The notes beneath the pieces are model-generated. The model saw only the letters and a list, made by a program, of their open reading frames with translations, did not search any database and was not told the DNA's origin. 64,000 nucleotides of DNA from Calditrichota bacterium (GTDB lineage Bacteria > Electryoneota > RPQS01). Positions within the stretch are counted from its first letter, which is position 1, and every line of letters starts with the position of its first letter. The position numbers and the translations under genes are program-made. Shown piece after piece: positions 15,839 through 46,119 of the stretch. The stretch is from assembly GCA_020637445.1 (NCBI GenBank), contig JACJVZ010000001.1, forward strand, positions 85,108 to 149,107, read 5' to 3'.

Positions 15839-16108
15839 TGTAACCTGGATTTTGAATTTGTAACCAGCATGTAACCAACGTAAGGCGAGTATTTTCTAAC
15901 GTGTAACCATGTAACCAATTTTTGCGATACACACCCCACTATAAATGATTTTTTGATCGTCGTATTCAGCATTGAATCTAGTGAATTGAATTTTCTATAA
16001 TGAGAGTATCGTTCTAAAAAGGTTACAAGGTTACATTACTATTTCTACTCCACTTACGTGGTTACAATCAGGTTACATGAAGGTTACATTTTAGGAAAAC
16101 AGGTTACA
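15839..16108. repeat. Iteron-type origin candidate: 5x TGTAACC (15839-15916), a ~100-bp AT-rich spacer, then 6x GGTTACA (16021-16108) in mirror-image spacing
   Basis: Left heptamer starts: 15839, 15859, 15870, 15902, 15910. Right heptamer starts: 16021, 16029, 16059, 16071, 16082, 16102. The spacings mirror each other (left 20/11/32/8, right 8/30/12/11/20) around an AT-rich centre at 15917-16020. The region lies just downstream of, and overlaps the 3' end of, the replicase gene. Confidence 0.6.
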
Positions 16109-18997
16109 ATTATTATCAAAAGGTTTTTGTTTTGGCGTTTTCTTATTCGGCGTTTGACTTTCGTCGTCGTCTGCAAGCGATCTGCTGATTGCTTCAAAGC
16201 CCGATAGATCCAGCCCAAGCGTCGTTGCCAATTCTATGTCAACAATGATGCATTTCTTCGGCGCACTCTTCTTGCCATAACTATCATTCTTGAATCTTAC
16301 GGGGTGGTTTGTCTTAACGACAAATTCCTTTCGCGAATCAAGCTGCTTTTGATAGGCTGCGTAGTCACTTATTTCACCGTCGTAACCAATTCGACTGGCA
16401 TTTGCAGCAAATACTTGCGCTGCAGTCCTAAGGTGAATTGCGAGATATTCTTTGCTCGAGTCCAGACTTCTAATGTTTACGAACGCATAGTCTACATGCT
16501 GTTTCGCTAAGTCTCTTTCAGCCATTATTGCGAGTTGTTCGAGCAAGTAGTCAAACGAAAGTTTCACTTGACCATTGCCAGCACCAGTAACTTCTTCGAT
16601 TTGGATGTCGATCGCTTTCTGCAGGTCGATCTGCCCAGCCATCGAAATGCCGTACTTTGCTGCAAAGTCTTGCATCAACGTCAAACCGAACACCATGGCA
16701 GTAATGTTGTTTTGAATGCGGGGTGCGACATGCTTGTCGCCATACAAAGCTTTTGCAGTATTTTCTGCGTCAGCCAATCGCGCTGCCACATCCACTCCCA
16801 AGCAGAAAGGAATATATTGTGTCATGAAAGCCTGAAGATCAAGACCCTTCAAAGATCTAAATGCTGTTTGGCAAGCACTGTTCTTCTTGATTTCATCTGT
16901 GAATCCTGCAATCAACACACGTTCCAGAACGGCTGATTCCTTTACCTTGGATTCACCACACAAAACCACCGGTGCGGTCAAGTGGTAGTGTGTTACGGTC
17001 TGATCAGGATTACCCTTGTCTTCGATTTCTCCACGATAAACTTTGCGCAGCATTCTGGTCAGGTCCATTACCTGGCCATCACGCATATCGTATGGTTTGA
17101 ACTCGTCTAGGACGACAGGTACTGCATTTGTACTACTGAGCAGTTTCAGCATCGGAAACTGTTTCATGGTGCATGAAGACACAACAGGATCATCGTAACC
17201 GTGCAACGACATCATCAATTCCAGAAGTGAAGTCTTTCCGCCGCCCTGTGTACCATAACAGAACAATGCTGGGAAACTTCCGACTAAGTCCGTGATGCGT
17301 GGCTTCAACGGGACGGCGAAAAACCAACCTAGAATAGGCAGCATCACTTCCGGCTGATTGACGGCAAGAATATTGTTGAAGAATGTGTTGATAATGGATG
17401 CATAGTCAGTATCAGACATCTGCGAATATTTAACACGCGCATGAAGCGAATCCGAACTTTTGTCAAAAGGCATGATTTGCATCGGATTGATCTGACCGGC
17501 AGCGGTCAAATTCAGATCACGAACAACCCAAATGTCGTCGTGCAATCCAATACTGCGGGTTCCCTGTTTTCTAACAGCAACCTTAGATATGACATGCTGA
17601 CAGACGTCGATTACGTCCAGGTCGCTGCCATGAAAAGTTCCTTCGCTGTGCTTGGTTGCTTTCATGAACTTTCCACGCGTGTGCCAATCCGTGTTTTCGA
17701 TAGTAATCCCGGTCCATTCCTGACCGGAGATGTGTTTGATTGTGCAGTTCAAAACATCGCCGTCTGGCAGCATTAACAGTTCGCCAGCATCGATCGTAAA
17801 TGGCGTCAGCATGATAAAATCGCCGTTCTTTCCAATCTTGCCATAGCATCCGCTGCGTTCCACAATCGGGCTATCAATCGGGTCATACTTAGAAGCCCAA
17901 CCTGCAGGCGCTTTGGGAGCACCCACAGGCAATTCGAACTTCACGCCCTGATCCGCAAATGTTTCATAGCTTTGTGGGCCATTCCAGTTTTCGGCGATAT
18001 CGCAATACAGGTCATCTAGCTTCTCCTGGCTGAATCGCTCGGGTTCGCGCTTGCTCAATTCGGTAAATCGATCCCAACCACCCGTTTTTACCAAGTAGTT
18101 GGAGCCAACTCCCACCCAAGGGTCATAGTCCCACCCACAAGGGTTCTCTTCGAACATCCGAATTATTGGGCAGTGTTCGATCATACTGGCTAGACCTGGC
18201 TGATTCAATTGAATGCCGGAATTGGAAGCGTGCAACTTTGCATGGTCGACTTTCGAATTGCCAATAACACGCTTTACCGCCATTGCTGAGTTGCGCTGGA
18301 CTTCATCCAAAGTACGCACCGGATCATCAACAGGCTGAAAGTTTGTTGGATTAAGCAATTCACTTCGCTGACCAGACACCTTATGCAGTGCGAATGGTAG
18401 TTTTAGTAGGTTGCCAAGCCCTTTCTTCCCACTTATGGAATCTTGTTTGGGAAAGATTTCAATATGCAAACCGTCGGGCAGCATACCGATCTTTGAAATT
18501 AGTACACGACCAAGTTGTTTTGCCTGGGCCGCAGGAAACAATTCTTCAAACAACAGTATAACGTGGTATCCCTTGCGGCCACTAAATTCTAACAATGCAT
18601 GCAAGCCCAAGTCTTCACATGCCGAAAGCAGCTTGCACGCGGTGTCCTGAAGTGCGGGAAGGTACTCAAGTACCTTGTCTGTGTGTTCTTTGTTGACATC
18701 AATATCCAAGGCAAGGAATTTTACTTTGTCGTCCTTGTCAATGGGATAGATGCCGATAGTTGTGTCGCCTGCGACGTGATTCTGCAGATCGACAAGCGTT
18801 AGTTCGCAATTCTGCGGGTAATAGTCGCCATTCGATTGTTGAACGGCATAGTTGTCGGTTCTTGTAACAAACCTATGTAGTAATCCCGACGCAACCAGAA
18901 GCACCTGCGCCGGGTTGGTATCAAACTTGTTATCATTATTATGCTGTGTGGTAGCTGTCAGTGGTTCTTCCACTGCGTACGGTAATGCCATTCTCAT
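16091..18997 (-). CDS. Replicase: N-terminal archaeo-eukaryotic-type primase-polymerase (PrimPol) domain fused to a C-terminal D5/P4-like SF3 helicase P-loop NTPase
   Basis: AEP motifs IGIYPIDKDD...FLALDIDVN...SGRKGYHVILLF near the N-terminus. Walker A GTQGGGKTSLLELMM in the C-terminal half. 968 aa. Adjacent to the iterons. Confidence 0.75.
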   Translation of the reverse strand: MRMALPYAVEEPLTATTQHNNDNKFDTNPAQVLLVASGLLHRFVTRTDNYAVQQSNGDYYPQNCELTLVDLQNHVAGDTTIGIYPIDKDDKVKFLALDIDVNKEHTDKVLEYLPALQDTACKLLSACEDLGLHALLEFSGRKGYHVILLFEELFPAAQAKQLGRVLISKIGMLPDGLHIEIFPKQDSISGKKGLGNLLKLPFALHKVSGQRSELLNPTNFQPVDDPVRTLDEVQRNSAMAVKRVIGNSKVDHAKLHASNSGIQLNQPGLASMIEHCPIIRMFEENPCGWDYDPWVGVGSNYLVKTGGWDRFTELSKREPERFSQEKLDDLYCDIAENWNGPQSYETFADQGVKFELPVGAPKAPAGWASKYDPIDSPIVERSGCYGKIGKNGDFIMLTPFTIDAGELLMLPDGDVLNCTIKHISGQEWTGITIENTDWHTRGKFMKATKHSEGTFHGSDLDVIDVCQHVISKVAVRKQGTRSIGLHDDIWVVRDLNLTAAGQINPMQIMPFDKSSDSLHARVKYSQMSDTDYASIINTFFNNILAVNQPEVMLPILGWFFAVPLKPRITDLVGSFPALFCYGTQGGGKTSLLELMMSLHGYDDPVVSSCTMKQFPMLKLLSSTNAVPVVLDEFKPYDMRDGQVMDLTRMLRKVYRGEIEDKGNPDQTVTHYHLTAPVVLCGESKVKESAVLERVLIAGFTDEIKKNSACQTAFRSLKGLDLQAFMTQYIPFCLGVDVAARLADAENTAKALYGDKHVAPRIQNNITAMVFGLTLMQDFAAKYGISMAGQIDLQKAIDIQIEEVTGAGNGQVKLSFDYLLEQLAIMAERDLAKQHVDYAFVNIRSLDSSKEYLAIHLRTAAQVFAANASRIGYDGEISDYAAYQKQLDSRKEFVVKTNHPVRFKNDSYGKKSAPKKCIIVDIELATTLGLDLSGFEAISRSLADDDESQTPNKKTPKQKPFDNNCNLFS

Positions 18998-19229
18998 TTG
19001 CCTTTCTCTTAATATCGAAGACCAAAGTCTTCATCATGGTCTGTGCATTCAAAAAGTCCTGCACCCGCACAGACAGGGTATTGCGGAAAAATCCGTCTTC
19101 GATCGCCTTAATTTCGGGGCAGTCATCGAAACGGAAGAAGATTCGTCCAAGGTCGTCCACGTAGTAGTCTACGAATTGGTGGCCCTTGGCTTTCAAAGTC
19201 GTTATCAATCCAAAATCTTTTGTTTTCAT
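18939..19229 (-). CDS. Hypothetical small protein upstream of the replicase (its 3' end overlaps the replicase start)
   Basis: 96-aa ORF in the same orientation as the replicase. No motifs recognised. Confidence 0.3.
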   Translation of the reverse strand: MKTKDFGLITTLKAKGHQFVDYYVDDLGRIFFRFDDCPEIKAIEDGFFRNTLSVRVQDFLNAQTMMKTLVFDIKRKANENGITVRSGRTTDSYHTA

Positions 19230-19245
19230 TGTTGATTTCCTTTAG

Positions 19246-19609
19246 TTAGGGAATAAGTGGCAGAATTGTTCTTAGCCATTTCAGCATATCTTTCTTGCCC
19301 GCGTATCTGCTGCCGAACGCTGGTTGCGGCATCGGGAATTGTTGCGCGAGTGCGTGCGGAACTTGCAAAATGCTGCGATGCAGCAGGCATTGAAAGGCGA
19401 TTTCACTGGCAAACCTTCCGTCAGTAAGTCCTAAATGGCGCTTGATTGCTTGTGTATCGCTTGTGCCGATTGCCTTGTTTTCCCAGGGCAACCATAGAAT
19501 GTACCAACAACCTGCTACGCAGTAGCACTTTAGACCGTGGGCCATTAGGTAGTGCGCGGTCCTTTGGGCGCTCATCAGCGCCATTCCATGCAATATTTTC
19601 TTCTTCATG
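19246..19609 (-). CDS. Hypothetical protein (121 aa)
   Basis: Internal ATG preceded by AAGGAAG (MKKKILHG...). The longer upstream extension has no RBS. Confidence 0.35.
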
Positions 19610-19709
19610 TTTTCTTCCTTTGTGTTCTTAAGAAAAGCCGGATCATAGACCCGGCACACGAAGGAAGGAAGTTATCATCTTCATGCGCCGAGCATATCCA
19701 TATTCATTA

Positions 19710-45918: not shown

Positions 45919-45940
45919 AACGGGACAGAAACGGGACAGA
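45919..45940 (+). repeat. Tandem 11-bp direct repeat AACGGGACAGA x2 (possible integrase arm-type or regulatory sites), followed by TTGGTTG-ATAC-TGGTTG
   Basis: Seen directly in the sequence, between int and the tRNA. Confidence 0.5.
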
Positions 45941-45983
45941 TTGGTTGATACTGGTTGCTAAAATCTGGACATACGAATGAACA

Positions 45984-46027
45984 CTTGCGCAAATCCGAAA
46001 AACAAAAAAGCCCTGCAAAACAATGTT
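45984..46027 (-). terminator. Terminator for the tRNA (minus strand)
   Basis: Read on the minus strand: AAAGCCCTGC...GCAGGGCTTT hairpin followed by TTTTTTGTTTTT. Confidence 0.55.
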
Positions 46028-46046
46028 TTAGCAGGGCTTTAACCAG

Positions 46047-46119
46047 TGCACCCACAGGGACTCGAACCCCGAACCAATTGATTAAGAGTCAACTGCTCTA
46101 CCAATTGAGCTATGGGTGC
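46047..46119 (-). tRNA. tRNA-Lys (anticodon CUU), 73 nt, CCA not encoded
   Basis: Minus-strand sequence GCACCCATAGCTCAATTGGTAGAGCAGTTGACTCTTAATCAATTGGTTCGGGGTTCGAGTCCCTGTGGGTGCA folds as a cloverleaf. Acceptor 7 bp, D-arm GCTC/GAGC, anticodon stem GTTGA/TCAAT with loop CTCTTAA, T-arm CGGGG/CCCTG. Confidence 0.85.

Follow-up and report, generated by a model that had tools for sequence, protein, structure and literature searches.

A strain-variable, defence-carrying genomic island at a tRNA-Lys(CUU) integration site in a Calditrichota bacterium

Our analysis of a 64,000-nt stretch of bacterial DNA (hereafter the window) supports the view that the ~30 kb adjoining its tRNA-Lys(CUU) gene belong to a horizontally acquired and strain-variable region, which lies at a tRNA-Lys integration site and carries stacked defence systems. 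The first-pass annotation had read this interval (15.8-46.1 kb; coordinates are window positions, negative ones lying to the left of the window, and L and P numbers are our labels for loci and proteins) as one ~30-kb integrated element. Its foreign origin, its position at a site used by a mobile family and its multi-layer defence cargo are upheld, but its unity is not, as there is neither a left attachment site (attL) nor a compositional step at 15.5 or 10.8 kb. We lean, if only slightly, towards reading the interval instead as the tRNA-proximal part of a serially assembled and partly decayed genomic island, which is a mosaic within a larger foreign-looking region of ~50 kb. The genes and repeats that had been listed are all present, namely tRNA-Lys(CUU), the integrase, the excisionase, the GGGACAGA repeats, a PrimPol-helicase gene with iterons, a type I restriction-modification (R-M) system, a GmrSD gene with a partner and a WYL cassette (Table 1). 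The closest relatives of the integrase and of DnaE2 carry names that assign the host to the Calditrichota, and the type IX secretion system (T9SS) sorting domains found in the flanks with Pfam fit such a host.

The right end had been called canonical on the strength of its excisionase (Xis), tyrosine integrase (Int), arm-like repeats and tRNA; all of these were found, and contigs of other strains back the junction. The tRNA-Lys(CTT) gene is the single tRNA found by ARAGORN and Rfam, the latter giving nothing else. The integrase and excisionase open reading frames (ORFs) are intact and converge on the tRNA 3′ end, the int stop codon lying 204 nt from it, and the closest integrase relatives (78-85% identical) are in Calditrichota metagenome-assembled genomes (MAGs). 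A longer, 411-aa version of the integrase ORF was rejected as an over-extension, the gene callers giving 341 aa. Directly after int there is a terminator-like hairpin, followed by the arm repeats, whose exact pattern GACAGA-N5-GACAGA occurs once in the window against an expectation of 0.02. Between the arms and the tRNA lies the terminator of the tRNA itself, a bulged hairpin that a simple terminator scan missed and that was revealed by folding (-21.9 kcal/mol, z = -3.3). In L022, L027, L054 and L058 int, arm and hairpin are followed by the same 44 nt of the tRNA without its 5′ half, and in an alignment of nine attachment-site (att) copies the 36-38-nt hairpin and the 44-nt piece are invariant, while the arms co-vary with the integrase type. 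The int/xis module (~41.3-46.09 kb) is one member of a family of elements with tyrosine recombinases for which tRNA-Lys(CUU) is the integration locus. The attachment region of this family can now be defined: it comprises a pair of GACAG-type arm repeats, the terminator hairpin of the tRNA and the final 44 nt of the tRNA. Because related elements carry these last 44 nt together with the hairpin, the island meets the chromosome on its right within the tRNA gene (46046-46089) and not 3′ of it; the tRNA 3′ part and the terminator now in use were element-borne.

Looking up the exact FtsX-like protein encoded beside the tRNA returned contigs from many metagenomes, including L002 and L005. To the right of ~45972 these two match the window at 100% identity; across int the identity is 71-92%, and the sequences left of 44608 are unrelated. 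The same species holds, at the same site, a different integrase allele with unrelated and again defence-like cargo. A comparison of strains had been proposed as a check, and this outcome, an identical right flank next to a different integrase allele and unrelated cargo, favours mobility. Two further occupants of the site are L028 and L060, the integrase of the latter being truncated by a terminus of the same insertion sequence (IS) that left scars in the window, and one related genome (L061) has the FtsX/tRNA-Lys site with an arm remnant but without an integrase. A protein-identical copy of the integrase P0002 (85% identical to that of the window) is also encoded beside ScdA, NarK and nitrate reductase, where exactly the last 44 nt of tRNA-Lys come after arm and hairpin. 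The DNA beyond them is unrelated, and ARAGORN finds no tRNA there; the identical integrase with the same arm and hairpin, and only the 44-nt tRNA piece after them, is present in L022, L024, L025 and L027. A third, different element (L054) has the same 44-nt junction, as does the JGI contig L058 from another genome. Additionally, L022 and L027 share a 99.96% identical element and an identical integrase beside flanks that are only 87% identical, with occurrences at two different loci. The cargo of integrase relatives comprises an SNF2 helicase, a DUF262 protein and an AAA_15/DUF3696 ATPase in L022, and Abi_alpha and a PLD nuclease in L030. Beside xis-int, related int modules have a gene of 514-618 aa, Rep-like and weakly similar to archaeo-eukaryotic primases (AEP), that the window lacks. 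Scans of IMG/VR with the att hairpin, the integrase and the replicase found no relatives, and for the products of the first ORF, the 2321-aa ORF and dnaE2 of the window and for P0122 no exact protein match turned up.

The ScdA/NarK/nitrate-reductase side deserves a description of its own. It holds a complete attP-like array of int, arms, hairpin, 44-nt piece and a second GACAG arm (L022 11026-11423, L054 1500-1900, L027 and L058), seen in at least six samples and with two different elements, and the nitrate-reductase region is host-like in composition. The array could be a tandem-integration junction or a relic secondary site. A giant island reaching out to the ScdA and nitrate-reductase operon, as the att-like junction beside ScdA might imply, is unsupported, the nitrate-reductase and molybdenum-cofactor regions being host-like (r = 0.88-0.89). 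In L058 (330-430, minus strand) two tandem copies of hairpin plus tRNA fragment, one of them degenerate, stand ~150 nt apart with only an arm remnant between them, which looks like the footprint of a deleted element and indicates that displaced att copies can decay.

On the left no counterpart of this junction was found. No duplicate of the tRNA 3′ end turned up in 1-45800, whether by exact words (at least 9 nt), by BLAST with short-query or relaxed settings or by an nhmmer profile built on the nine att copies, which extends the BLAST check proposed earlier and bears out the remark that no exact duplicate could be found. L015, a recovered contig that reaches 7.6 kb further left of the window, has no second 44-nt piece or hairpin either, and there is no displaced tRNA fragment within 53 kb. 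The best in-window match of the att profile (17904-17964, E = 0.24, the others being at chance level) was rejected: it includes the exact 11-mer GCACCCACAGG but lies in frame inside the replicase gene, where it encodes FELPVGAPKAPAG, and was judged to be chance. Both attL candidates put forward earlier are missed by the profile. The one at ~15535 falls at the conserved 3′ part of a small gene that is also present in another genus (15544-15671), and the one at ~10811 is the start of imuB-promoter homology to L034, a locus of that other genus (GCA_013360195.1; housekeeping proteins 49-90% identical to those of the window). An attachment site at the dnaE2 3′ end was likewise rejected, as the end of dnaE2 is not repeated in the window or in L034; the divergence at 15449 reflects the variable C-terminal tail of dnaE2.

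The compositional profiles, another of the proposed checks, gave a step at the right end and none at 15.5 or 10.8 kb. GC content and tetranucleotides change sharply only once in the window, at ~44-46 kb by the tRNA, and the DNA right of ~46 kb is indeed richer in GC (0.53-0.58 versus 0.42-0.525). The left flank (1-15 kb) is neither GC-richer than the island nor compositionally distinct from it, the tetranucleotides of 1-12383 correlating at 0.35-0.57 with a host reference versus 0.58-0.83 with the island. dnaE2, imuB and both T9SS giants share the island-like composition, as does an operon with ThiS-like, JAB-like and ThiF genes beyond the left edge of the window; it is not until the molybdenum-cofactor genes, ~4.2 kb left of the window, that the DNA becomes host-like again. 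The foreign composition spans from ~4 kb left of the window to ~43-46 kb. Because the left flank is compositionally like the island, the start at 15.8 kb is the edge of an iteron array and not an element boundary.

The segment that differs between strains begins elsewhere again. L012 matches the window at 100% identity over 9443-12400, its identity falls to ~85% through dnaE2, and after 15449 the two are unrelated; the breaks in contigs of five assemblies, among them the MAG GCA_020439805.1, fall at 12.5-13.3 kb. Because the divergence of L012 starts inside the 5′ end of dnaE2 (~12.4 kb) and the contigs break nearby, the strain-variable unit includes dnaE2, and it runs from the start of this gene to the tRNA. 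The dnaE2 allele of L012 (84.9% nucleotide identity to the window) is about as distant as that of the other genus (L034, 81.9%).

It is unlikely, in our judgement, that a single ~30-kb integrative, plasmid-like element stretches from a replicon at ~15.5 kb to the tRNA, integrated as a unit, with an attL that has decayed past recognition. Such an element would account for the onset of non-homology between strains and genera right after dnaE2, at 15449, and for the several metagenome contigs that end near there, and Int, Xis, Rep and ori do form a coherent toolkit for integration and replication. However, nothing att-like is found at 15.4-16.1 kb even with the profile, composition does not change at the left end, IS scars lie between the blocks, and the strains already differ from 12.4 kb. 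Moreover, L034 has the same replicon architecture after dnaE2 with no integrase within 10 kb, its int and tRNA-Lys being on another contig.

A different left end is suggested by L015, where CCAATTGATT, the last 10 nt of the 44-nt piece, is followed after 50 nt by GAGACAGAATCGAGACAGA. The exact pattern GACAGA-N5-GACAGA was found only here and at the right-hand (attR) arm, on the same strand, and the site coincides with the compositional transition. In L022, L027 and L058 two GACAG-type repeats stand 50-51 nt from the core after the 44-nt piece, the same layout as in L015, and with a profile built from these three loci only, the L015 site is the best non-tRNA match, although a weak one (E = 0.14). 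The chances are about even that it is an outer attL (P′ arm), in which case the island would measure ~49.6 kb. Just inside this site lies an operon (L015 4363-7106, window ~ -3310 to -567) for a ThiS/ubiquitin-like protein of 69 aa, proteins of 364 aa and 238 aa (the latter with a weak Prok-JAB match) and a ThiF/E1-like protein of 217 aa, which by its gene content resembles the ubiquitin-like conjugation operons of phage defence.

One might also picture a single, still intact ~50-kb integrative element from the P′-arm-like site ~3.5 kb left of the window to the tRNA, which would carry the ubiquitin-like/E1 operon, T9SS cargo, imuB-dnaE2, the replicon and the defence genes. The compositional block from ~ -4.2 kb to ~43-46 kb, the arm repeats that match in sequence, spacing and strand at both ends, and the 82% nucleotide identity of imuB-dnaE2 to the other genus versus 66-72% for housekeeping flanks all speak for it. 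We nevertheless find this improbable, as the left site has no duplicated tRNA or hairpin segment, the variant strain keeps the left part at 100% and differs from dnaE2 on, so that the block does not act as one unit, and IS scars indicate decay. Less probable still is a stably chromosomal defence island built by accretion, with a dead relic of an integrase and with variation arising from homologous recombination and IS but never site-specifically, which would agree with the missing attL, the IS scars, the recombination breakpoint in dnaE2 and the integrase-less site of L061, but not with the intact integrase and excisionase ORFs and conserved arm repeats, nor with the near-identical element of L022 and L027, which points to recent site-specific movement of family members.

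We favour a serially assembled island also in view of its interior, where three scars of one IS3-type element mark precisely the borders between cargo blocks and the edge of the int module. In L034 the sequence matched by the first of them (1467-1635) covers the end of the IS and the 3′-terminal part of an HTH_Tnp_1/rve transposase gene. The scars divide the cargo into blocks, the first with the R-M, YgjP-like and 427-aa genes, the second with SPFH, WYL, HTH, DUF2779 and TPR genes, and the third with GmrSD and Nmad2. Next to the last scar, the int module begins with a 48-nt block shared with L028 and L030, which diverge from each other ~65 nt left of their copies, with different cargo to its left.

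The replication module predicted at the left end, with an origin-like array, a PrimPol-helicase replicase and small upstream genes, is present as described. GGTTACA occurs 17 times in the window against 4.6 expected, with 11 of the 17 copies inside the 270-nt array at the replicase 3′ end. The replicase N-terminus matches PF22548 (3.5e-33), PDB 7nqd (1.5e-28), PADLOC PrimPol models and PHROG primases, a Walker A/B pair is formed by GTQGGGKTS and VVLDEF, and residues 380-946 are 24-27% identical to a DUF927 protein of a haloarchaeal plasmid and to a primase of a Halorubrum virus. PF22548 might have marked the gene as a member of a ‘TOTE’ conflict system; we read it instead as an AEP domain of the PrimPol clade, and a literature search on TOTE gave nothing. 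Judged from its sequence, the gene with its inverted iteron arrays is a predicted plasmid-type replicon.

This replicon is linked to dnaE2 beyond the window. L034 has imuB-dnaE2, a homologue of the small 133-aa ORF (the C-terminal part, 61% amino acid identity over 69 residues; 78% nucleotide identity over 15544-15671), a GCAGGTG iteron array at the same position, a 972-aa gene on the opposite strand (26% identical to the window replicase over 117 aa), a DUF5659-like gene and the 22-nt block. The latter, GATGTTCAATTTCGGGCGATCG, is identical in both genera apart from one ambiguous position, amid non-coding DNA that otherwise cannot be aligned. After its replicon L034 continues with T9SS genes, no integrase being found within 10 kb; a different contig of the assembly has the integrase, tRNA-Lys and FtsX, there with a separate 618-aa gene beside xis-int. 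In a third genome (L047) a DUF5906 replicase and a small gene follow dnaE2, whereas two more distant genomes have neither. The order of dnaE2, a convergent primase-helicase-type gene and a DUF5659-like gene thus recurs in three genomes (window 12384-19229, L034 10001-16819, L047 4-4178), among which DnaE2 is 75-90% identical versus ~26% for Rep and the iterons differ (GGTTACA versus GCAGGTG). Either the replicon co-travels with imuB-dnaE2 or the position downstream of dnaE2 is a preferred insertion site, and we draw attention to this link between a plasmid-type replicon and a mutagenesis cassette. imuB-dnaE2 (window 10811-15449, L034 8414-13054) is 82% identical in nucleotides and the flank from FtsX to pyrophosphatase only 66-72%, though the pyrophosphatase protein is 90% identical, which hints at possible lateral exchange of the cassette. 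The 351-aa ORF just before imuB is a possible, but no more than possible, ImuA-like partner.

Between the two ends the type I R-M system, the GmrSD-like enzyme with its partner and the WYL cassette were all found by Pfam or PADLOC, giving three recognisable units with predicted roles in restriction or defence; the hypothetical genes claimed for the interior correspond to several ORFs without a family match. HsdM, HsdS and HsdR are encoded together in one operon with the YgjP-like gene (21751-29520). The methylase domains of HsdM end at about residue 483, and its C-terminal ~400 residues have no Pfam match. The putative GmrSD enzyme joins an N-terminal, GmrS-like DUF262 domain and a C-terminal, GmrD-like DUF1524 domain in one protein, and its gene overlaps the Nmad2 gene by 8 nt; the PADLOC Orf5, HEC-06 and SspE-type models match this pair. 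The Nmad2 (nucleotide-modification-associated) domain takes up the C-terminal 200 residues of the partner, whose N-terminal 295 residues match nothing, and no description of a GmrSD and Nmad2 pairing was found in the literature searched. We flag this pair and the WYL/DUF2779/TPR block as possible new anti-phage systems. Among the ORFs of 15.5-46 kb, several of which have no family match, PHROG and Pfam gave no genes for capsid redirection, packaging, helper sensing or a small terminase, and among those of at least 100 aa Pfam and NCBIfam gave no relaxase, coupling protein or type IV secretion match. Because no relaxase, secretion, capsid or packaging genes were found, transfer would need a helper or transformation.

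Table 1. Features of the window and of the adjoining contig L015, from left to right.
Feature	Position	Strand	Basis or remarks
Candidate outer attL (P′-arm-like)	L015 4145-4227 = window -3528 to -3446	same as attR repeats	att pattern
Left region, island-like composition	1-12383	+	Pfam, tetranucleotides; 9443-12400 100% identical in L012
Two giant T9SS-sorted proteins	14-2302, 2328-9164	+	Pfam
351-aa ORF directly upstream of imuB	9635-10690	+	no family match; absent at the corresponding L034 position
imuB	11028-12176	+	Pfam
dnaE2, error-prone polymerase	12384-15479	+	Pfam; in segment differing between strains
Small ORF, 133 aa, between dnaE2 and iterons	15531-15932	-	no family match
Origin-like iteron array: 5 GGTTACA (-) 15839-15916, ~105-nt AT-rich spacer, 6 copies (+) 16021-16108	15839-16108		word count
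Replicase, 968 aa: N-terminal PrimPol (AEP), C-terminal P-loop/DUF927-like helicase	16091-18997	-	domain matches
DUF5659-like ORF, 96 aa	18939-19229	-	homologues beside large replicase-like genes of L034 and L047
137-aa ORF upstream of replicase	19246-19659	-
178-aa ORF upstream of replicase	19945-20481	-
22-nt block, far side of replicon module	21383-21404	+	kept in L034 17973-17994; 0 expected by chance
hsdM, 888 aa	21751-24417	+	PF02384, PF12161
hsdS, two target-recognition domains	24414-25715	+	PF01420
hsdR	25703-28840	+	PF04313, PF18766, PF22679
YgjP-like metallopeptidase	28846-29520	+	Pfam
427-aa ORF	29636-30919	+	no family match
Scar, right end of IS3-type IS	30946-31113	+	84.6% identical to L034 1467-1635
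SPFH/Band-7 protein	31197-32804	+	Pfam/PADLOC
WYL-WCX regulator	32906-33901	+	Pfam/PADLOC
HTH_8 protein	33908-34288	+	Pfam/PADLOC
DUF2779/Cas4-like nuclease	34254-35801	+	Pfam/PADLOC
TPR protein	35889-36989	+	Pfam/PADLOC
106-aa ORF	37056-37376	+
Second scar, same IS right end	37482-37608	+	73% to L034 1515-1644; 79% to copy at 31014-31113
GmrSD-family type IV restriction gene	37731-39743	+	PF03235 7.7e-28, PF07510 2.1e-8
501-aa gene, C-terminal Nmad2 domain	39736-41241	+	PF18753 1.4e-43
Scar, left terminus of same IS	41278-41312	+	97% to L034 377-411
48-nt block, left edge of conserved int module	41335-41382	+	shared with int modules of L028 and L030
int-module ORF	41382-41816	-	no family match; not called by gene callers
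int-module ORFs	42108-42749, 43195-43944, 44082-44498		no family match
Excisionase, HTH_17	44539-44817	+	domain match
Tyrosine integrase, 341 aa, SAM_5 and catalytic domain	44817-45842	+	PF00589, PF13102
Arm-type repeats, two GGGACAGA, 11 nt apart	45922-45940	+	variant form in every related element
tRNA-Lys terminator: near-palindromic hairpin, then U-run on tRNA strand	46003-46040		invariant in nine att copies compared
Last 44 nt of tRNA-Lys, anticodon loop to 3′ end	46046-46089	-	travels with related elements
tRNA-Lys(CUU), intact	46046-46119	-	ARAGORN and Rfam

From these data we infer a history in which successive integrations at tRNA-Lys, followed by IS insertions and adjacent deletions, would have fused once-separate units, namely the replicon with imuB-dnaE2, the defence cassettes and the int module, and erased the internal att sites, the P′-arm-like site ~3.5 kb left of the window perhaps marking the outer left end. 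Int and Xis could act on the right-hand att site; the 30-kb interval, because no matching attL exists at 15.5 kb, would be unable to excise as a unit. Present turnover would then be mainly the replacement of 12.4-46.1 kb by homologous recombination in the flanks, dnaE2 on the left and int/att/tRNA on the right. The defence layers would act independently, R-M against unmodified and GmrSD against modified DNA, and the WYL regulator probably controls the neighbouring nuclease genes. We also consider it possible, though not likely, (a) that the Calditrichota harbour a family of previously undescribed small integrative replicons whose att is the tRNA-Lys(CUU) anticodon arm plus its own terminator and which serve as exchangeable defence carriers, (b) that the PrimPol-helicase/iteron replicon is mobile with imuB-dnaE2 and has been fused into the window, and (c) that the GmrSD and Nmad2 pair and the WYL/HTH_8/DUF2779/TPR block are uncharacterised defence systems.

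Several points weigh against serial assembly at this site as we have set it out. The order of the assembly events is inferred and not observed. At the candidate outer attL there is no displaced tRNA 3′ part or hairpin, the 7-nt ‘overlap’ does not match the anticodon loop and the E value is weak; the site could be left over from a different event or be due to chance. Atypical composition is frequent in T9SS giants and imuB-dnaE2 cassettes anyway, so a foreign-looking stretch of 50 kb is not necessarily a single island. The exact crossover is affected as well, as the 5-nt linker between tRNA and hairpin is AACCA in both occupants of the FtsX site (this species) and AGTTG in both occupants of the ScdA site. 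The linker tracks the site and not the element, L002 having AACCA like the window while the same element in L022 has AGTTG, as might be expected of a crossover within the hairpin, or of homologous recombination at a later time, whereas the 44-nt boundary points to the anticodon loop. Finally, no truly empty site of the same species was found through FtsX relatives (in species-representative genomes, nothing), through dnaE2 relatives (seven loci, none with tRNA-Lys downstream) or by a scan for the att pattern in JGI metagenomes (four loci, no clean empty site of this species).

For comparison, the 2002 catalogue of tRNA-targeting islands and integrative elements by Williams reportedly includes an anticodon-loop class in which attP contains the tRNA 3′ part. 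As in these islands and elements, int and xis of the window converge on the tRNA, the tRNA copy borne by the element (44 nt) starts at the anticodon loop and includes the 3′ end, there are arm-type repeats, and different strains show different occupants of the site. In contrast to them, the conserved att region of the window family includes the tRNA terminator hairpin, and the window has no displaced tRNA fragment (attL) within 53 kb and is a decayed mosaic and not a clean insertion. The window island thus shows most of the defining features of tRNA-targeting islands and lacks flanking repeats within reach.

Rousset et al. are said to have described in 2022 hot spots of antiviral systems and defence islands on integrative elements and satellites, P4-like and of the type of phage-inducible chromosomal islands (PICIs). 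The window resembles such satellites in having an integrase at one end, a primase-helicase replicase with an iteron origin and defence cargo that is interchangeable between relatives (R-M and GmrSD here, others in L022 and L030). It differs from them in that PHROGs recognise no capsid-redirection, packaging or helper-sensing genes, in that its replicase lies 26 kb from the integrase and is linked to dnaE2, and in its Calditrichota host. Among the matches in 15.5-46 kb, the missing helper-hijack genes set it apart from the satellite class and the missing relaxase from mobilizable elements. The replicase itself has the order of the pRN1 ORF904-type protein and the Halorubrum virus CGphi46 primase, PrimPol then P-loop helicase in ~900-970 aa, and as in plasmids with PrimPol-helicases the iteron array adjoins the replicase, on both sides of an AT-rich spacer. 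Unlike in such plasmids and viruses, the predicted replicon is chromosomal, and it is only 24-27% identical to them over the helicase part.

Type I R-M loci together with a GmrSD-family type IV system occur on islands such as Vibrio cholerae VPI-2 (Vibrio pathogenicity island 2; PMC11411939) and with BrxU (PMC8565348). Similar to VPI-2- and BrxU-type loci, the window would combine methylation-dependent and modification-targeting restriction in one island, as predicted from its genes; unlike in such loci, its GmrSD lies outside the R-M operon, 9 kb away behind IS scars, and the partner is an Nmad2-domain protein. Together these comparisons do not overturn current ideas on genomic islands. A defence island at a tRNA-Lys hot spot is of the ordinary genomic-island kind, here in a little-studied phylum, and what is unusual about it is that the conserved att region takes in the terminator hairpin, that in three genomes the replicon is linked to dnaE2, and that GmrSD is paired with Nmad2. 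It offers a worked example of the build-up and turnover of a defence island in an almost unstudied phylum, in which the obvious interval from integrase to replicase turns out, on our reading, not to be the mobile unit.

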